Positions 54,571 to 63,545 of a stretch of DNA of 64,000 nucleotides are shown one piece after another. How positions within the stretch are numbered: position 1 is the stretch's first letter; the number at the start of each line of letters is the position of its first letter. Location of the stretch: positions 160,001 to 224,000 of the forward strand of contig CAVUVW010000005.1 of the NCBI GenBank assembly GCA_963745035.1, given 5' to 3'. The notes beneath the pieces are model-generated. The model did no database searches. It was not told where the DNA came from and saw only the letters and a list, made by a program, of their open reading frames with translations. The translations under genes and the position numbers were made by a program. This DNA comes from an uncultured delta proteobacterium (GTDB taxonomy: Bacteria > Desulfobacterota > Binatia > UBA9968).

Positions 54571-55257
54571 TTACCCTCTCGGTACCGTCCTTCCTCTCCC
54601 CGTCCAGCGGTAAACCAATAAATAAAATGACAGTAACGAATAATTATAGAAAAAATCTTCCAGGGGAATAGTAATGAAACGCGCGCCCCAGATCGCGTCA
54701 GGGTTGTATTGCACCACCGGAAGCGCCGTGAGGACGAAATTCACAATCAGAAATGGTACCAGACAGATGGTGAGCCAAATCCAGTAGTGGCGGCTTTCGA
54801 GCAGGGGCCGGTCGAAGTACAGCGCAACGAGCAGAAAGAGCGCGCACGAGCCCAAGGCTTTCGAGGTGTAGCCTTGGTCGAAGAAGAACAGACTGCCCGC
54901 CGCCAGGATGACGACCGCGGCAAAGACGACTCCTGCCGGCATCCTCAACGTGGTGTGTTTGCTCGTCGCCAAGATTGCTTCATAAATAAACAAGCAGGAG
55001 TACGGGACCGTAATAAAAAAAAGAATCTCTTCCACGGGAAGGTTTACGACTTTGATTCCGCTGACATAATGCGGATTGAAGCTCCACTCGCCCCAGTCAG
55101 TGGCCATAATATCCCACGCGATGTACTGGCTACCGACTAAGATGATCGCGGCTCCCAGAGCGCGAAAATTGCGGTAGTAGGCGATTCGGCGATTACCTGT
55201 GGCGCAGAGCGGCCCCAAGATGATGCCGAGATTGATCCAAAGATAGGTCAGCAACAT
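54571..55257 (-). CDS. Lycopene cyclase domain protein (fused CrtYc/CrtYd type)
   Basis: Hydrophobic; two repeats WD...WSFN...LPVEEILFF and YNP...IPLEDFFY. Confidence 0.85.
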   Translation of the reverse strand: MLLTYLWINLGIILGPLCATGNRRIAYYRNFRALGAAIILVGSQYIAWDIMATDWGEWSFNPHYVSGIKVVNLPVEEILFFITVPYSCLFIYEAILATSKHTTLRMPAGVVFAAVVILAAGSLFFFDQGYTSKALGSCALFLLVALYFDRPLLESRHYWIWLTICLVPFLIVNFVLTALPVVQYNPDAIWGARFITIPLEDFFYNYSLLSFYLLVYRWTGRGRTVPRG

Positions 55258-55282
55258 TGGAGAATTCGCAAGTCGGATCGAG

Positions 55283-56797
55283 TTAAGCAAAAATTCCTTG
55301 CAGTGGCACGGAATAAATCGGTTCTTCCTGCAAACCCTGCTTGGCCACGATTGCGTTGGCACACAACAAGCCCGAGGTGAACGCCGCTTCCATGAGCATC
55401 GCCGGCGTCGGGATCTTGACCCAATCGCCCGCCAGATAGAAATCGGCGACTTCCGTTTTGAATCCCGGCCGGTTCCGGTGCAAGCTCGTGTGAAAAGCCG
55501 TGAAGTCGCGCTTGACTTGCAAATGCTCGCGCAAGATGCGCGCTGTCTGGAGATCGGGAAAGTAGTCATAGAGCTCGGCCAAAAACGCGCTCTTCAATCT
55601 CTTCTCGTTTTCCATGCCGGGCGGCAGCGCGTAGCAGTGCAGCTCATAAACCCCCCCGCCGGTTTCTTTCGCCCACCGCACCGCAGCTTTGTCAAATTGA
55701 TGATAGAAAGTTACCGAGTCGAGCACATCGCGTTTCTCGGTGATGATAAAAACGGGTAGCTGCGGGCTCGTCTGCCGCTCCAGCCAGATCCGGTAGATCG
55801 CGTAACCGTCGGATGGCCGCAGCGAGGCGAGCTCCATGTGAGTTCTTTCCGAAGCGGATTTGATCCAAGGAGAATTGACGGCGATCTGCCGCGCGCCGAC
55901 GACGTCGCAGGCTAGAATCAACGAGTCGAAGTCCCTGCCATCGACCTTGAAGCGGCCCTTTGCGTGCTCGGTATGGGTGACGCTTTGATTGAGCTCGACG
56001 GCAACGTGATGCCGAGCCAGGTGACACCGCAGGGGTTCGATCAGCGCCTCGGCATAATCGGCGTCAAAGTATTCATAGAGCAGGCCGTGATCGTGGCTCA
56101 AATAGAAAAAATGAAAACTCTTCATGAGCTCGGCCGTGCTCAGCTTGTACGCCGGAGCAAAGAACGCCCGCGCGAAAGTATGAAAAACGAGGCGGAGGGA
56201 CGCGGGGAGACGAGCGCGATCGGCGAACTCGTCGAAACTGACGCCGTCGAAGTCGCCGAAGGTTTTCTCTTCGTCGTATTTGACGAAGTCGCCCATGCGC
56301 CAGCTCGCCGGGTTAAGCAGCACGTCGCGCATCCGGTAAAATCCGTTTCGGCCCAAAGAAATGATATTGAGCACTGGCGTAGTCGCGACATTCTTGAAGC
56401 TGAAGCGTTTACCGTCCTGGGTCAGGACCAGGTAATCATCGATCGTTTTTAGGTAGCGGCTAGCGCCGATCTTTTCGAGAAACGCTCTAAGGTTGTAATA
56501 ATGGCGAAAGAAAGCATGAAAGCCGTGGTCGACGTTTTCAACGCTTCCGTCCGGGAAACGCACCGGCCAGCAGCCCGTCTTGCCGCCCAGGTAGGAATTC
56601 TTTTCGAACAGCGTCACTTGGAAACCGCGCTCACCCAATAGAGCCGCCGCACCGAGGCCTGCGAGTCCACCTCCGATCACAGCGACTTTGTGAGAGCCGT
56701 GAAAATCCTTCGGCTTGCTCGGATCCACCGCATTGACGAGGGTAACGTAGCCGTCGAGGCGCTTCTTGATATATGGCCGCAGCAATCGTTCGAGCAT
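55283..56797 (-). CDS. FAD-dependent carotenoid oxidoreductase, CrtU/isorenieratene synthase-like
   Basis: GGGLAGL, LGGK, DHGFHAFFRHYYNL, ELHCYA, LAGDWV, LMEAAFTSGL; carotenoid context. Confidence 0.75.
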   Translation of the reverse strand: MLERLLRPYIKKRLDGYVTLVNAVDPSKPKDFHGSHKVAVIGGGLAGLGAAALLGERGFQVTLFEKNSYLGGKTGCWPVRFPDGSVENVDHGFHAFFRHYYNLRAFLEKIGASRYLKTIDDYLVLTQDGKRFSFKNVATTPVLNIISLGRNGFYRMRDVLLNPASWRMGDFVKYDEEKTFGDFDGVSFDEFADRARLPASLRLVFHTFARAFFAPAYKLSTAELMKSFHFFYLSHDHGLLYEYFDADYAEALIEPLRCHLARHHVAVELNQSVTHTEHAKGRFKVDGRDFDSLILACDVVGARQIAVNSPWIKSASERTHMELASLRPSDGYAIYRIWLERQTSPQLPVFIITEKRDVLDSVTFYHQFDKAAVRWAKETGGGVYELHCYALPPGMENEKRLKSAFLAELYDYFPDLQTARILREHLQVKRDFTAFHTSLHRNRPGFKTEVADFYLAGDWVKIPTPAMLMEAAFTSGLLCANAIVAKQGLQEEPIYSVPLQGIFA

Positions 56798-56832
56798 GGC
56801 TCAGGAGAATAAATCGATGGCGCCGTCTCAGC

Positions 56833-57906
56833 TCACGCGGCATTTCCCGCTTGCCGCTGAATGAACTGCTGCACGCGGCGAATCGTGCGGTTTACTTCGA
56901 AGGGCTCGCGCTCGGGATTCTCATCGAAGGCAGCCTGTTCTTCTTCGATCATCACAGTATCCTGGCGGATAAGATTCCGCAGGAGCCTGCGGGCGACGTT
57001 GTTTAGCGCGCGCTTGATCAGCCGGCGCACAGAGGGGGGAGCCTTCTGCAAAACTGCGAACTTTGCGAGAGAGGTGTAGTGGATCAAGTAGGCGTCTGTA
57101 AGACGCTCGTTGGCCGGACAGATCAGACAGAAAATTTTGAAGTCGTCGCCCAAAGTCGCGCGCCAGTTGGGATAATCGTAGGTCACCGTCAAAGGCGCGG
57201 CGTGGAGCTTGCGCAGCCATGGAATAAAGAGCTGCAGAACGGAACCGAGATCGGTTACGCGGTAGCACGTCGTGGCGTCGTATTTCGCGGTTACCTGATC
57301 CTCCGTTTGCACGACTTCGCGCAACGCCTCAGCGGTCCACACCTGGTATCGGGCATGCAGGCGCCCGTGATACATGTCCATGAGATTTTCCACCAGATAG
57401 GAGAAATGGGCGCGGCACGTCAGGCGGGCGACGCTGTGAATTTCGTTGAGATCATCCCACTCTTCCATCAACGTAGGCGCTACACTCTCAGACCGGGCTG
57501 GATCCCCAGGGTAAATCCAGATAAAGCCGTATTTCTCGATGACCGGAAAGGATCTGACGCCACAGTCCGGCAATGTCGGTTTTGACGCCAAATGCGGAAT
57601 ATGAACGCAGCGTCCCCGAGGATCGAAGCGCCAACCGTGGTAGGCGCATTCCACGCTGCCATCGACGATCCGCCCGTGACTCAGCCGCACCAAGCGATGC
57701 GCGCAGCTGTCTTCGATCGCGCGTATGGTGCCATCGATGCGAAATAGCACGACGCGCGTTTTCCAGATTTCGCGCCCGACCAAGCGGTCTCCGATCTCAG
57801 AAGACTTCGCGATCATGTACCAACGATCAGGATTTATCCGGGCGCGTCGCAGACGACTGCTCGCGGAGTCCTGGCGCATAGGGCCTAGCGCATCTTCGAG
57901 TTTCAT
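56833..57906 (-). CDS. Rieske non-heme iron oxygenase alpha subunit
   Basis: CAHR...CAYHGW Rieske motif and ENLMDMYHGRLH mononuclear iron motif. Confidence 0.9.
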   Translation of the reverse strand: MKLEDALGPMRQDSASSRLRRARINPDRWYMIAKSSEIGDRLVGREIWKTRVVLFRIDGTIRAIEDSCAHRLVRLSHGRIVDGSVECAYHGWRFDPRGRCVHIPHLASKPTLPDCGVRSFPVIEKYGFIWIYPGDPARSESVAPTLMEEWDDLNEIHSVARLTCRAHFSYLVENLMDMYHGRLHARYQVWTAEALREVVQTEDQVTAKYDATTCYRVTDLGSVLQLFIPWLRKLHAAPLTVTYDYPNWRATLGDDFKIFCLICPANERLTDAYLIHYTSLAKFAVLQKAPPSVRRLIKRALNNVARRLLRNLIRQDTVMIEEEQAAFDENPEREPFEVNRTIRRVQQFIQRQAGNAA

Positions 57907-58053
57907 AGGTGTCCGGATTGCCTTGCTGATCGCGCGTTGCCGAGAATCTTCAAATGTCGCCCTACCAACTGCTTTGGAGCGCGGCGTCCGCAAGCTGCCA
58001 TGATTTGTCTCATTTCCTGCTAGCAGATTTCGGGATCTTGTTCTAACCGGTTC

Positions 58054-58983
58054 TCAGAGTTGCGCTGAATTGGGCGTAGGCTGCTTGCGGCCGACCGAGC
58101 GAAGAATGGGCAGCGATTTCATGATTTTTAAGACGGAGCGTTCCTTGTCCTTGACTTCGAGCATGACGTCGATATCGAGATCTTTTATCTGACGATAGAA
58201 ATCGTGGAATTTCTCCACACTTATCGACTTGGAGTGAGTGCCCGCGGGCTGCCCGGGCCACTGGTTGGAATAGTGGATTTTTACCCGCCCATCGCGCCTG
58301 CGCCAGGTCGCCGCGCTACGCTTGATGATCGCGCGCAATGAGTCTGAACGGAGCGCCGGATTCCAGCGGTGATGAAACACATCGAACACGACGGGAACTC
58401 CGATGGCTTGTGAGGCGCTGAGCGTATCAGTGACTGTGTAGCAATGCTCGTCGTTTTCGATCACGAGCCTGGCCTTGATGCGGTCATCGAGCTCCGCGGC
58501 ATTTTGGATGAACCTTTTTAGACTTTCCGTCTTGTCGCCGTAGATGCCGCCCAAGTGGATAACGGTTTTGTGCGTATCATCGATTTCCAAGGCATCGAGA
58601 AATGTGGTGTGGTAGGCGAGCTCTCTGACGCTGTTTTCCACGACTTCGCGCCGGGGTGAATTGAGGACGGTGAACTGCCCGGGATGCATCGAGACGCGCA
58701 GTCGGTTTGCGCGTATGTAGCTGCCGATGCGCTCGAGCTCAGCTCGCAATATCGTCGGCCAAGGGACCTTGTTGATCTGATGGGAGGCGAACGGAACCAC
58801 GTCCGAAGTGATGCGAAATAGCTCGATGCCGTGCGTCACATTCCATTCCAAAATCCGTTGCAGCGCGGCGAGGTTGGAAGTGGCCAACTCGAGAATCTTT
58901 TCCGAGGTCGCGTTCCTTAATCGACAAGTCCGATTCGGCGAAATCAATCGGCTGTTAATGCAGGCGTAACCAATGCGAATCAA
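58054..58983 (-). CDS. uvsE: UV DNA damage repair endonuclease UvsE (UVDE)
   Basis: IGYACIN, FRITSD, PFASH, SMHPGQF, HLGG, IENDE, FDVFHH, KIHYS, MLEVKDKE. Confidence 0.95.
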   Translation of the reverse strand: MIRIGYACINSRLISPNRTCRLRNATSEKILELATSNLAALQRILEWNVTHGIELFRITSDVVPFASHQINKVPWPTILRAELERIGSYIRANRLRVSMHPGQFTVLNSPRREVVENSVRELAYHTTFLDALEIDDTHKTVIHLGGIYGDKTESLKRFIQNAAELDDRIKARLVIENDEHCYTVTDTLSASQAIGVPVVFDVFHHRWNPALRSDSLRAIIKRSAATWRRRDGRVKIHYSNQWPGQPAGTHSKSISVEKFHDFYRQIKDLDIDVMLEVKDKERSVLKIMKSLPILRSVGRKQPTPNSAQL

Positions 58984-58997
58984 TGCTAATGCTCCCT

Positions 58998-59498
58998 TCA
59001 GTGCCCGAAGCGATCGTTTAAAATGGATTCATGCCACACTTCGGATGAAGCGTCGGGCGTGAAAAGTTTTTGCAGCGCAGCGCGACGGTGAGCAAAAATT
59101 TTCGCCAGATCCGGCGCGACGAGAAGCTTGTGAATCAAACCACCTCCCGGGACCGCGTACTCTACGTCATCCCGGACGATCGTACCGCCGTCGCCATTGA
59201 CGAAAGTGTGCTCGTGCACCCAAAGCGAGTAGGGACCTTTGATCTGGCGGTCGACGAAGCGGAGGGGCGGCTCCCATACCGCGATCTCGCTTTGCCAGCG
59301 GAGCGGAATCCCGCGCAGCCTGAGACGATAATCGAGTAAAGTTCCGCGGCTCATTTTAGTCTCGAACGAAGTGAGAATTTCAAAACGCAGCCAGGCCGGT
59401 GTGATGCGCTCGAGATTTTTTGGATCGGCGAAAAACTCAAACACTTGTTCGCGCGGTCGGGGCAGCCACAGTTCGGACTTGAGATGATGGGTTTTCAT
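58998..59498 (-). CDS. SRPBCC family protein
   Basis: VFEFFADPKNLERITP, FVDRQIKGPYSLWVHEHTF, IFAHR. Confidence 0.9.
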   Translation of the reverse strand: MKTHHLKSELWLPRPREQVFEFFADPKNLERITPAWLRFEILTSFETKMSRGTLLDYRLRLRGIPLRWQSEIAVWEPPLRFVDRQIKGPYSLWVHEHTFVNGDGGTIVRDDVEYAVPGGGLIHKLLVAPDLAKIFAHRRAALQKLFTPDASSEVWHESILNDRFGH

Positions 59499-59512: not shown

Positions 59513-60475
59513 TCAGACGTAGTTGCGCGGTATCAGCTCCTTCGGGGCTGGATCCAGATACATCTGATCGGCGAGATACGCGACCTCGTATTTTTTTACA
59601 TAATGTTGCATCAACGTGATCGGCGCGATTAGCGGCAGGAGTCCGGTGCGAAACTCGCGGATCAATTCCACCAACTCACGTCGCTCGGCCGCCGATAGCT
59701 CTTCGGAAAAGTAGCCCATGAGATGATCCAACACGTTGGCGTGCTTCTTGGCGCTTGCGCGAACGGCCAGGCCCTCCATAAAATTTTGCCCGTATTCTTC
59801 GTACGTGGCACGCAACGAGTTCTTTCCAATTCCTGCGACCAGACGGCCCAGCCGCCGGTAGTGGCGCTCGCTATGCGCCAGCAGGAGAAACTTATGGCGG
59901 GTGTGAAAGTCGACGAGAACACGGGCCGATTTCGCTCCCGCCAGAGCGCTTTGCCAGCGATGGTAGGCGAACACTCTTTCGACAAAGTTTTCCCGCAGCG
60001 CCAAATCGTTCAATCGGCCTTCTTCTTCGACCGGCAAAAGTGGTAGGGTTTTCATTACGGTGGCGGCAAAGATCCCGCGACCGTGGCGGCTCGGCATGTT
60101 CTTGGCGTCATAAAGGCGCACGCGCTCGATGCCGCAACTCGGCGAGTTTTTTTTGAATACGTAGCCGGATAGTTTCAGCTCGGCCAGGTCTTTAGTTCGG
60201 ATTGCGGCGAATCGCTTCATTGCCATGGTCCAATCCTTACCCGAACGCTCGGCGATCATTTTCGGATCGCTCCCCGATCCGACCAGGCGCACGCTCTCAC
60301 GCGGCACGCCCATACCCACTTCGATCTCCGGACAGACCGGAACCCACTCGACAAAACGGCCGAGAGTTTGACACAGGAAGGCGTCCTGTTTATGCCCGCC
60401 ATCGAAGCGAACTTTTTCCCCTAATAGGCAGGCGCTGATTCCCAGGCGCGGCGAAACACTAAAGTTATTTTTCAT
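59513..60475 (-). CDS. ybgA: DUF523 + DUF1722 protein (YbgA/RudS-like thiouridine desulfidase)
   Basis: ISACLLGEKVRFDGGH, VCPEIEVGMGVPRE, SPSCG, EEEGRL, FHTRHK, HLMGYF. Confidence 0.9.
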   Translation of the reverse strand: MKNNFSVSPRLGISACLLGEKVRFDGGHKQDAFLCQTLGRFVEWVPVCPEIEVGMGVPRESVRLVGSGSDPKMIAERSGKDWTMAMKRFAAIRTKDLAELKLSGYVFKKNSPSCGIERVRLYDAKNMPSRHGRGIFAATVMKTLPLLPVEEEGRLNDLALRENFVERVFAYHRWQSALAGAKSARVLVDFHTRHKFLLLAHSERHYRRLGRLVAGIGKNSLRATYEEYGQNFMEGLAVRASAKKHANVLDHLMGYFSEELSAAERRELVELIREFRTGLLPLIAPITLMQHYVKKYEVAYLADQMYLDPAPKELIPRNYV

Positions 60476-60487
60476 CTGGTGTTTACT

Positions 60488-60516
60488 ATTTAAAACATTA
60501 CTGGTAATAAAGTCAA
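60488..60516 (-). promoter_or_regulatory. Putative sigma-70 promoter with a palindromic operator in its spacer
   Basis: Minus strand TTGACT-TTATTACCAGTAATGTT(17)-TTAAAT; ATTAC-TG-GTAAT palindrome at 60497-60508. Confidence 0.55.
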
Positions 60517-60553
60517 TTATACTTAACTTTCAAATGCGCATTTGGGAAGTTAG

Positions 60554-61459
60554 ATGAAAATTATCGTCACGGGTGGCACTGGCTTTATCGGATCCAAATT
60601 GGTCGACCGCCTGTGGAATCAATTTCACTCGTTGGTTCTTCTCAGCCGCAAGCCGCCGGCAGAGGTGGGCGTCACCAAGAAGCAATGGTTTGCCTGGAAT
60701 CCACCGCAAGGTGGTGAGTGGGAAAGAGCGGTTGACGGCGCCGACGGCATCATCAACCTTGCCGGCGAGCCGATCGCCGGCAAGCGCTGGAGCAAAGAGC
60801 AGAAAGAAAGACTGCGCGCAAGCCGCATCGATGCCACCCGCGCGCTCGTCAGCGCCATCGCGAAGGCGCAGGTCAAGCCCAAGTTCCTGCTGAACGCCTC
60901 AGCGGTCGGCTATTACGGCGCGCATGGCGATGAGACGCTGACCGAGGCCAGCCCGCCGGGCAGCGATTTTTTGTCCCGGCTATGCGTGGACTGGGAGGCG
61001 GAGGCGCGGAAGGCTGAAAACCACGGGCTGAGAGTCGCGACCGTTCGAACCGGCATCGTTCTCGGCAAAGGACAGGGCGCGCTCGCCAAAATGGTTCCGC
61101 CGTTCAAGATGTTTGCGGGCGGACCGTTGGGCTCCGGCAAACAATACATGCCGTGGATTCATATCGAAGATGAGATCGGCTTGCTGCTGTTTCTCAGCGA
61201 GAATGAACAGGCCCGCGGCGCGTTCAATGCGACCGCGCCGAATCCGGTCACCATGGAGGAGTTTGCCAAGGCTTTGGGCGCAGTCTTGAACCGCCCGTCG
61301 TGGGTCTCCGTGCCGCCGTCGGCGCTGGCGCTCATCGCCGGTGAGATGGCCGATATGCTGCTCACCGGACAACGCGCCTTGCCCGATGCGGCGACCCAGC
61401 TCGGTTATGTTTTCACATACTCGACGATCGGCGCCGCCTTGCAGTCACTGCGCCTTTGA
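60554..61459 (+). CDS. TIGR01777 family NAD-dependent epimerase/oxidoreductase
   Basis: TGGTGFIG, INLAGEPI, SAVGYYG, RTGIVLG, GSGKQYMPWIH, NATAPNPV. Confidence 0.93.
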   Translation: MKIIVTGGTGFIGSKLVDRLWNQFHSLVLLSRKPPAEVGVTKKQWFAWNPPQGGEWERAVDGADGIINLAGEPIAGKRWSKEQKERLRASRIDATRALVSAIAKAQVKPKFLLNASAVGYYGAHGDETLTEASPPGSDFLSRLCVDWEAEARKAENHGLRVATVRTGIVLGKGQGALAKMVPPFKMFAGGPLGSGKQYMPWIHIEDEIGLLLFLSENEQARGAFNATAPNPVTMEEFAKALGAVLNRPSWVSVPPSALALIAGEMADMLLTGQRALPDAATQLGYVFTYSTIGAALQSLRL

Positions 61460-61473
61460 TTTCGTGACAATCG

Positions 61474-62406
61474 ATGAATGAAATTCGACCACTCAGAAAC
61501 CGCGCCGAACGCAAAATTAATTCGCAAGCTTGGCAGGGCGAATATGCGCGCGCGCTCAGCGCGGGTGACGCGGAAGCCGCCAACCGGGTAATCGAAGACT
61601 TGTTGGCGCAGCGCTGTTCTCTTAGTGACATCTACTTGCAGGTGATCACCCCGTCGCTCGTCAGTATCGGCGATTTATGGTGCCGCAAGGACATCACCAT
61701 CGCGGAGGAGCATCTGGCGACGCAGTTGGTTTTGCATCACTTGGATCGGCTGATCTCGACGTTTGCGTGGCGCGATCGATTATCTTCTTACCGAATCTTG
61801 GTGGGCTGCGTCGAAGGCGAGCGCCACTGGATCGGCGCGCGCATGTTCGCGGATCTCTGTCTCAGCCACGGCTGGTCGGCGGAATTTCTCGGCCCGGACG
61901 TTCCGAACGATGCGCTGATTGACATGGTCAGCAAACGCAGCCCGCAAGTGGTGGCGCTATCGGCGACCATGCTGGTGGGCGCCGAGCAGGCGCAAGCGCT
62001 GGCACGAGCGCTGGCGACCCTGCCAAGCCCGCCGCGCGTCATCCTCGGCGGGCAGGCGATCACGGACAGCGCGATGGCGCAGTCGTTTGGTTCTGGCTGC
62101 GCGATTGCACGCGACGCGATCGAGGGCCTGGAACATGCTCTTCAATTTCTTCGCAAGCATCGTCCAAAAGTTGTTCTCAAAGAGTATCTATTGGCGCTCG
62201 GCCGCCGCGTTCGTGATCTGCGTTTAAAAAAAGGCTGGACCCAGGAGCAGCTCGCTGAAGGAGCGCGGGTGACGCGAGTCTGCATCGTGGCGGTCGAGGG
62301 CGGCAAGCAGAATGTCTCGATGGATATTGTCGTTCGGCTGGCCAATGCTCTGGGAGTGTCGCCGCAAGCTCTTTTGAACGACGGCGGCGGGACGGATCAA
62401 GTTTAG
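61474..62406 (+). CDS. Cobalamin-binding (CarH-type) photosensor fused to C-terminal XRE HTH
   Basis: W-x9-EH (WCRKDITIAEEH), ERHWIG, LGPDVP, LSAT, ILGG; then LGRRVRDLRLKKGWTQEQLAE...VEGGKQNVS...LANALGV. Confidence 0.88.
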   Translation: MNEIRPLRNRAERKINSQAWQGEYARALSAGDAEAANRVIEDLLAQRCSLSDIYLQVITPSLVSIGDLWCRKDITIAEEHLATQLVLHHLDRLISTFAWRDRLSSYRILVGCVEGERHWIGARMFADLCLSHGWSAEFLGPDVPNDALIDMVSKRSPQVVALSATMLVGAEQAQALARALATLPSPPRVILGGQAITDSAMAQSFGSGCAIARDAIEGLEHALQFLRKHRPKVVLKEYLLALGRRVRDLRLKKGWTQEQLAEGARVTRVCIVAVEGGKQNVSMDIVVRLANALGVSPQALLNDGGGTDQV

Positions 62407-62416
62407 GGAGAAGCAA

Positions 62417-63545
62417 ATGAAAAATTCAGCTCTGAATGTGGCGGAGATCGTGCCGGCGGCGCTCATCATGGATTCCGATCGATGGATGAACGACACGGAG
62501 CGAGAACGTTCCGAATCGACCGGTGCCAACGGACATCTTCCGGGCCCGGCAGAGTGGCCGGAATTGCTGGGCGCGAGGCCAGGCGCAGCGGTTGAATCGG
62601 TTTTGCGCCGGGCGCTGATCGAGCCCATCGAAGAGTTGACTTCGATACGCGGCAAGCGTATTCGCGCCCACTTGGTGACGTTCAGCAACCGTTTGTTGAC
62701 TGGCGACCAGCCGTATTCCATGGCGGCGGCGAGCCGATGCCATTTGGCGGTCAACGCTATCGAATTCATTCATGCCGGCTCACTTATCGTCGACGATATC
62801 GAAGATGGTAGTCGGATGCGACGCGGTCGGCCAGCGCTGCATGTAAGCCACGGTATGCCGGTTGCGCTCAACGCCGGGAACTGGCTTTACTTCTGGCCGT
62901 TCGCTTTGTTTAAAGAACTCGCGCTGCCGAAAGACCAACTCTTGTTTGTGTACGAGTCTTGCCACCGCACGTTGCTGCGCGCCCATCTTGGCCAGGCGAT
63001 CGATCTCGGCGCGAAGGTCGGGACCTTGCCGCAGGCGCAGGTGGAAGAAGTTTGCCTCACGTCGATGCGGCTCAAAACCGGCGCGCTCATGGGATTTGCC
63101 GGCCTGCTGGGAGGCGCCGTTGCCGGTGCGCCGAACGCGGTGCTCTCGATCATCGACGATTTCGGCCGCGATCTTGGCGTTGCGCTACAGATGCACGACG
63201 ATCTTGGCAATGCGACCGGCGGATGCGAGCCGTCCAAGCGCTACGAGGATTTCACTCTGGCGCGTCCCTCGTGGGTTTGGGCCTGCGCCGCAGCGAACAG
63301 CACCCGCCGGTCCTACGAAGAATTTCTCACGGCGGTAAGTCGATTGCCCGACCGATCCGACTCTCGAGGCGTGGTTTTCCCATTACGACATTATCGAGCG
63401 GACGCGTCAAAGCGCGAGAGACTATCTCGATTTGAGTTTCACCACCTTGAAAACTCGTCTGGAGAAGGCCGGCGTAAATTGGTCACACGGCGTTTTTGAC
63501 GAGTTGCGCGAACTTGGCGAGGAGATAGCGCTTGCTTATGGATAA
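62417..63545 (+). CDS. crtE: Polyprenyl (geranylgeranyl diphosphate) synthase (frameshift ~63360)
   Basis: GKRIR, SLIVDDIED...RRGRPALH, GQAIDL, LKTG, QMHDD; overlaps crtI start. Confidence 0.82.

Follow-up and report, generated by a model that had tools for sequence, protein, structure and literature searches.

A putative coenzyme B12-dependent photoreceptor with a C-terminal XRE domain at a carotenoid and UV-repair gene cluster of the Binatia

In CarH and CtMerR the cobalamin-based light sensor is joined to an N-terminal DNA-binding domain. A gene from an uncultured member of the Binatia encodes what appears to be the same sensor driving an unrelated, C-terminal domain, and the locus raises the question of what such a protein would sense, which DNA it would read and which genes it would control. 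The gene lies in a stretch of 64,000 nucleotides (contig CAVUVW010000005.1 of assembly GCA_963745035.1, positions 160,001 to 224,000), hereafter the window, and the features discussed are collected in Table 1. The reading favoured here, to which we assign a probability of roughly 0.7, is that of a single-chain coenzyme B12-dependent photoreceptor acting as a dark repressor of the surrounding carotenoid and UV-repair cluster, to be released by photolysis of adenosylcobalamin (AdoCbl). Cofactor binding, photoresponse, DNA binding, oligomeric state and the sign of regulation are all inferred from CarH and CtMerR.

Table 1. Features of the locus, in window coordinates
Feature	Positions	Strand	Basis or remark
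Rieske protein, FAD-dependent desaturase-like and lycopene-cyclase-domain genes	54571..57993	-	Pfam, NCBIfam
uvsE UV-damage endonuclease	58054..58983	-	TIGR00629 above cut-off
SRPBCC / polyketide-cyclase-like gene	58998..59498	-	Pfam
ybgA-like gene (2-thiouracil desulfurase + DUF1722), first gene of the leftward run	59513..60475	-	Pfam
Candidate operator, left box, 18-bp TGT-N12-ACA palindrome	60480..60497		4 bp from the ybgA start codon
Candidate operator, right box, 18-bp palindrome, consensus GTCAA-n-TATA-n-TTGAC	60511..60528		Centre is a -10-like hexamer on both strands
yfcH / TIGR01777 oxidoreductase, first gene of the rightward run	60554..61459	+	Pfam, NCBIfam
Regulator gene, 310 aa, CarH-type cobalamin-binding module with C-terminal XRE HTH	61474..62406	+	Stop-free frame
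Four-helix cap (B12-binding_2), residues 23-91	61540..61746	+	Pfam, E 4.8e-14
W69-x9-E79H80 adenosyl-capping motif, with Cys70 at the CarH His132 position	61678..61713	+	Alignment to T. thermophilus CarH
Rossmann B12-binding domain, residues 107-200	61792..62073	+	Pfam, E 9.8e-17
E116-R117-H118-x2-G121	61819..61836	+	Translation
XRE/Cro-C1 helix-turn-helix (HTH_3), residues 246-299	62209..62370	+	Pfam, E 1.3e-11
crtE-like polyprenyl synthase	62417..63543	+	Pfam; one-base frameshift at 63360
crtI phytoene desaturase, leaves the window; crtB next on contig C5	63532..64000	+	TIGR02734, E 1.4e-60

Domain organization and cobalamin pocket

The preliminary description of this DNA had proposed a helical cap and a B12-binding Rossmann domain followed by an XRE-type helix-turn-helix (HTH), without a MerR domain, and Pfam searches agree on both the domains and their order. 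The matches to B12-binding_2, B12-binding and HTH_3 each exceed the model cut-off, and the MerR models returned no match to the protein. Assignment to CarH/LitR proper is ruled out by the absence of the MerR domain and by the NCBIfam CarH model, which covers just residues 12-205 and scores 76 bits against a cut-off of 400. In the AlphaFold2 model (42 homologues; mean pLDDT 84.6, pTM 0.71) the cap is predicted to consist of four helices (residues 8-29, 33-45, 50-70 and 76-97), and the five-stranded Rossmann domain closes with a helix at residues 215-229. A short hinge of low confidence (residues 231-233) leads from there to the five helices of the XRE domain. A homodimer prediction with two full-length copies and a zinc ion scored 0.01 and is given no weight in either direction.

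The fusion is real rather than an artefact, since contigs from two studies cross the junction between the Rossmann domain and the HTH without a gap (X6, 61578-62687; X7, 61873-63358); the reservation that the two domains might prove to be separate genes was thereby answered. A protein search gave 353 matches among 8000 scored candidates, with B12-binding_2, B12-binding and HTH_3 annotated in 120 of the 120 matches listed, and together with the spanning contigs this rules out two separate genes or an assembly chimera. At three of the 80 loci analysed (L020, L063 and L079) the regulator gene is split over two frames with the breaks in the sensor part, and these copies are probably sequence errors or decayed. 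Soil and rhizosphere metagenomes contain near-identical DNA. One RNA run includes a handful of 151-base fragments from the region, at a depth of 2-4, which are uninformative as to expression level or light.

The two motifs that define CarH homologues, W-x9-EH and the classic B12 motif (PMC8156234), are both present with correct spacing, and the translation places them where the preliminary description had located them, along with LGPD (residues 139-142), SAT (163-165) and GG (192-193). In full the B12 motif reads E116-x-H118-x2-G121-x41-S163-x-T165-x26-G192G193, with spacings of 41 and 26, the published form being D/ExH-x2-G-x41-SxT/V-x22-27-GG (PMC9304148). The ERH/LGPD region is identical to the GERH and LGPD of Thermus thermophilus CarH in a gap-free alignment. 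The presumed lower cobalt ligand, H118, is kept in 139 of 143 representatives of the family, and the Trp, EH and H118 occur together in 120 of them; this set comprises the sequences of 270 aa or longer among the best 150 representatives at 50% identity from a profile search, so that 143 is a lower bound and the family is larger. The regulator also carries the four-part light signature GxxW, EH, GxxH and GxxxP given in PMC11796333, which is complete in 63 of 76 aligned proteins, query included (75 from the loci plus the query, five broken or truncated loci having been dropped).

The best sequence and Foldseek matches of the regulator are the photocobilins, CtMerR and T. thermophilus CarH, with TM-scores of 0.78-0.83 between the model and the CarH/CtMerR sensor chains; corrinoid methyltransferase proteins rank lower. 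The top three NCBIfam corrinoid methyltransferase models reach 33-48 bits against cut-offs of 215-370, and a corrinoid methyltransferase protein of the MtbC/MtaC/MetH type was rejected on these scores and on the presence of W-x9-EH. By analogy with its photoreceptor relatives, the regulator very probably binds cobalamin, and there is good reason to expect that it responds to light through AdoCbl.

The Arg-Asp pair that serves dark-state assembly in T. thermophilus CarH had also been noted in the preliminary description. It is indeed present in the regulator (R117 and D142 in the alignment), but it does not hold as a family feature: both residues occur together in just 8 of the 143 representatives, and the pair therefore cannot be the assembly device of the family. 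Directly following the Trp, 55 of the same 143 have His and 7 have Cys. Given the unconserved pair and the replacement of His132 by Cys, the assembly and light state of CarH cannot simply be assumed. Their loss is nonetheless no argument against photoreception, because CtMerR lacks both the pair and a His132 equivalent in the alignment and still goes from tetramer to monomer in the light (PMC11796333). Cys70, Cys112, Cys129 and Cys270 are invariant across 42 close homologues.

Eight proteins of the Binatia clade (L006, L008, L010, L011, L012, L015, L016 and L023) have W-x9-EK or QK in place of the EH. They retain the candidate operator and the crt neighbourhood, and their upper-ligand pocket is possibly altered.

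The host genome encodes a PduO-type adenosyltransferase, NrdJ and CobS matches, two cobalamin riboswitches and a BtuB-like receptor that falls below the model cut-off, and it could plausibly supply AdoCbl. No match to CobA/BtuR, methylmalonyl-CoA mutase or photolyase was found in this genome (92.6% complete). Within it the regulator is the sole B12-binding_2 protein apart from a 1349-aa frame, presumably MetH, and no second CarH-type protein was found. All of its matches to crtE, crtI, crtB, uvsE and lycopene cyclase fall in the regulator's cluster.

Divergent gene runs and the candidate operator

A gap of 78 bp (60476-60553) separates two divergent runs of genes. The rightward run consists of yfcH, the regulator, crtE, crtI and crtB; the placement of the regulator just ahead of crtE-crtI holds, both genes being directly downstream, and crtB lies beyond the window edge. 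The leftward run comprises ybgA, the SRPBCC gene, uvsE, the Rieske gene, the FAD desaturase-like gene and a two-domain lycopene-cyclase gene. The spacing alone suggests that the last three are co-transcribed with the others, and together they may resemble a split CrtU-type aromatic carotenoid synthase. The frameshift in crtE is caused by one extra base at 63360 and is probably an assembly error, since the base is missing from contigs of two studies and the true C-terminus of crtE overlaps the start of crtI.

The gap, which the preliminary description had proposed as an EMSA interval, holds a conserved tandem palindrome. Its two boxes are 31 bp apart, equivalent to three helical turns. A seed taken from the gap, which forces the first ten positions and leaves the right arm and everything upstream free, located the right box upstream in 21 of 23 Binatia-like loci; in one of the two misses the contig begins too late, and the other is a broken second copy. 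The left box, which was not used in selecting these sequences, has at least five of its six end bases at an offset of -30 to -32 in 21 of 22 of them, and at -31 the mean is 4.9 of 6 against a background of 1.6 ± 0.5. With matrices made without the window's own site, the pair scores 47.9 bits. The runner-up in 7.4 Mb scores 18.8 and lies beside unrelated genes, and no further convincing pair was found in the genome. The conserved element recovered in this way consists of palindromes at 31-bp spacing. Another palindrome, ATTAC-nn-GTAAT, separates the two boxes but is unconserved and was rejected, and a promoter scan of 60400-60620 found no complete sigma-70 promoter.

The same spacing recurs in other clades, as arrays in Bdellovibrionota. 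Among 55 loci outside the Binatia-like clade, the spacings cluster at 31, with 13 loci, and at 62, with 15 loci, where about one would be expected from 506 control upstream regions, and spacings of 30-33 occur in 25 of the 55 versus 11% of controls. The strict spacing test is positive in just 5 of 15 protein clusters, and 15 of the 25 matches come from one clade. When the Binatia-trained matrix was allowed any spacing from 19 to 45, it settled on triples with a 31-bp period in 16 of 25 Bdellovibrionota loci. The converse cross-test gave a weak result, with 31 bp as the preferred spacing in 7 of 22 sequences, and in 29 other loci the best spacing fell at 28-33 in 20, without a single peak. Shuffle controls lose the local AT-richness, so that every spacing scored high, and the conclusions rest on the upstream-region controls and the matrix tests. 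In three SAR202 loci, compared without a formal control, box pairs 32 bp apart precede a photolyase run away from the regulator start.

The closest solved relative of the HTH is the restriction-modification controller protein C.AhdI (top PDB match, E 3.7e-8). Within the 143 representatives R268 is kept in 142 and E275 and N280 in all 143. The family consensus in this region reads D-R-x-Y-I-S, D-R-(T/A)-Y, of which the regulator here has the variant T-R-V-C. In the site of C.Esp1396I the outer TG/CA is read by R35, next to a central TATA and inner trinucleotides (PMC3488213), a layout shared by the boxes here, and by motif R268 would be the D-R-T-Y arginine that reads the outer TG (PMC3488213). 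Binding of the regulator to the two candidate boxes is highly likely. No restriction-modification genes were seen among the annotated neighbours of the regulator loci, and a restriction-modification controller protein proper is ruled out by the B12 fusion and by the crt, uvsE and ybgA neighbours.

Family distribution and light-gene neighbours

Relatives of the regulator are encoded in 192 stretches of a one-genome-per-species collection, of which 80 were analysed. Members occur in Binatia, Dehalococcoidia/SAR202, Bdellovibrionota, Acidobacteriota, Bipolaricaulia and Uabimicrobium. In a tree of 42 rows, a chosen subset, the query groups with a Binatia protein in a well-supported clade. A search of 301 genomes of the class found full-length matches only within the genus (3 of 6 other genomes) and the family (4 of 25); the remaining matches are to single domains.

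The preliminary description had expected homologues to be associated with photoprotection genes, and this expectation is borne out for part of the family. Counting crtI, crtB, cruF, photolyase, heliorhodopsin and uvsE within at most 8 kb on each side (often less), light genes are found at 22 of 23 loci of the Binatia-like clade and at 10 of 30 in other lineages, but at only 1 of 27 in the main Bdellovibrionota clade; kin among these loci are not independent. The neighbours are crt genes in Binatia and photolyase and heliorhodopsin genes in SAR202, and this difference in partners between clades suggests a repeated association with light stress.

In the main Bdellovibrionota clade (L025-L066) the regulator and a divergent J-domain gene of about 350 aa flank arrays of three or four boxes with a 31-bp period, and this J-domain gene may be the actual target there. 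A regulon test covering the 1.5 kb around each of 30 photolyase and 27 crtI-family loci, from 26 genomes of this clade, found no box arrays; the best triple scored 13.7 against a background maximum of 15.4. In a second Bdellovibrionota clade (L070, L072 and L074) the regulator is immediately followed by a DUF1295 and cyclopropane-synthase-like run, which extends to DUF1365 in L070 and L072.

The cultured Candidatus Lucifugimonas marina JH545 carries two copies of the regulator (L061 and L071). Both are oriented divergently to a fasciclin-folE-SRPBCC-photolyase-YbjT-heliorhodopsin run and are preceded by TG...CA boxes spaced 28-30 bp. Photolyase/heliorhodopsin clusters and inhibition of growth by light have been described for this organism (PMC10444878), where the mechanism of the light response is given as a hypothesis and the main text does not use the word 'regulator'. 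In three SAR202 loci a protein of about 390 aa with a weak DICT-domain match (L021:8065-9249, L077:9254-10396) is encoded 3' of the box pair and before the photolyase.

At many Binatia loci a photolyase-like gene (L001:93-1505 and relatives), in which just the N-terminal Pfam domain is detected, converges on the ybgA run. In the genome studied here uvsE stands at that site.

Proposed mechanism, alternatives and related systems

By analogy with CarH and CtMerR, the regulator is likely to be a dark repressor. One XRE dimer would sit on each palindrome, and in the dark the AdoCbl-loaded sensor domains would unite the dimers into a higher oligomer. This assembly would hold both boxes on the same face of the DNA, mask the -10-like hexamer in the right box and silence both directions together with the regulator's own gene; that one oligomer bridges both boxes has an even chance of being correct. 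Light would cleave the Co-C bond and shift the cap, and the oligomer would dissociate. With cooperative binding lost, crtE-crtI-crtB and ybgA-uvsE would be expressed. The scarcity of light genes in the main Bdellovibrionota clade and the eight Binatia proteins without EH were counted against the light-repressor reading.

An improbable alternative is a controller-like two-state switch, in which light changes the box that is held: a dimer on the left box would activate the rightward promoter and the dark oligomer would repress it. The HTH is closest to those of C.AhdI and C.BclI, and C proteins are described as activating from one box and repressing from a second (PMC2504287). If TATACT at 60518-60523 is the -10, the centre of the left box falls near -41.5, where a bound dimer could substitute for a consensus -35, to which the best match is 1-2 of 6 in all 22 sequences; the XRE dimers may, moreover, outlast photolysis. 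Such a switch depends, however, on an assumed start site, and the right box surpasses the left in symmetry and conservation and lies on the -10, so that a free dimer should favour it and repress.

Slightly less probable again is a sensor of cobalamin status or redox state, which would respond to how much cobalamin is present or in which form, or to the oxidation of thiols, with light acting only indirectly. The four invariant cysteines would fit such a role but are clade-specific, and while eight close members have lost the EH, most of the family retains W-x9-EH, which is reported to be missing in MetH (PMC8156234). A large clade without light genes nearby, and cbiX-like and cobN-like genes close to two distant members, also point in this direction; at the locus itself the neighbours are pigment and UV-repair genes, and the genome's B12 uptake genes carry their own riboswitches. 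Least probable is that the photoreceptor is real but the palindromes serve as -35 boxes placed back to back, or are bound by another factor. Read outward, each arm of the right box gives TTGAC, and the left-pointing arm matches TTGACA at 5-6 of 6 positions in all 22 sequences (partly through seed selection). Yet of the 22 sequences only 2 in the leftward and 1 in the rightward direction have a matching -10 at a distance of 16-18 bp, another phylum has triples before the regulator with the same TG...CA ends and 31-bp period without TTGAC, and the pair occurs once in the genome, as neither a promoter consensus nor the site of a global regulator would.

The dark-repressor reading could conceivably extend to the family as a second, independently wired class of B12 photoregulator, although we regard this as doubtful. 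AdoCbl-driven assembly of the sensors would then string controller-type XRE dimers at three-turn intervals, and the switch would be tuned by operator length, operators having two boxes in Binatia and either three or four in Bdellovibrionota and in part of SAR202. The light state of the Binatia clade could have a thiolate from Cys70 as its upper ligand, and the family would be the light switch of the SAR202 photolyase and heliorhodopsin clusters, including those of Ca. Lucifugimonas marina. The adjacency of the family to these SAR202 genes does offer a concrete regulator for a light response that was left hypothetical (PMC10444878).

The sensor chemistry is probably familiar. The C-terminal domain seems to recognize palindromes set three turns apart, which calls for a different assembly geometry. 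The candidate operator opens the system to direct EMSA or reporter tests, and a short palindromic operator would be a handy component of a switch for expression under green light that does not depend on CarH. The suggestion of an undescribed class is better put as an uncharacterized architecture: the literature searched yielded no paper on a B12 module with a C-terminal XRE domain, although Figures 9 and S9 of PMC11796333 may include one; the consulted text of PMC8717448, PMC10979010, PMC9304148, PMC8262859 and PMC8612252 does not mention the architecture. PMC11796333 already notes, without naming cases, that HTH and further outputs are found fused to either end of light-responsive B12 domains, and the B12 and HTH_3 domain pair is auto-annotated in databases.

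Of the known systems, CarH and class I LitR (T. thermophilus CarH, 5C8A/5C8D/5C8E; Myxococcus xanthus and Bacillus megaterium CarH) share with the regulator the cap and Rossmann AdoCbl module, W-x9-EH, the ExH-x2-G...SxT...GG motif, the identical GERH/LGPD elements and the carotenoid-gene setting. They differ in having an N-terminal MerR winged helix and a disordered linker, where the regulator has a C-terminal XRE HTH and a short hinge, and in an operator of tandem 11-bp direct repeats (PMC8156234), where the candidate operator here has 18-bp palindromes 31 bp apart; His132 is Cys here and the Arg-Asp pair is not kept across the regulator's family. CtMerR from Chloracidobacterium thermophilum (8JBS/8JBT) and the photocobilins SasPcob and AbDPcob (8J2W, 8J2Y) have the same four-part light signature and also lack a His132 equivalent, yet respond to light (PMC11796333). 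Photocobilins also place the sensor N-terminal to the output, but that output is a biliverdin-binding globin with or without a diguanylate cyclase, whereas CtMerR has its DNA-binding domain at the N-terminus; neither carries an XRE domain.

The output domain resembles the controller proteins C.AhdI (1Y7Y), C.BclI (2B5A) and C.Esp1396I (3CLC), with which it shares the XRE HTH and the D-R-x-Y consensus, and C-protein operators similarly combine outer TG/CA, central TATA and two tandem palindromes (PMC3488213). C-protein sites, in contrast, lie side by side, a double site spanning 35 bp in total (PMC2632904), whereas the candidate boxes here are 31 bp apart from start to start, and C proteins are small stand-alone dimers where the regulator has its HTH fused to a sensor.
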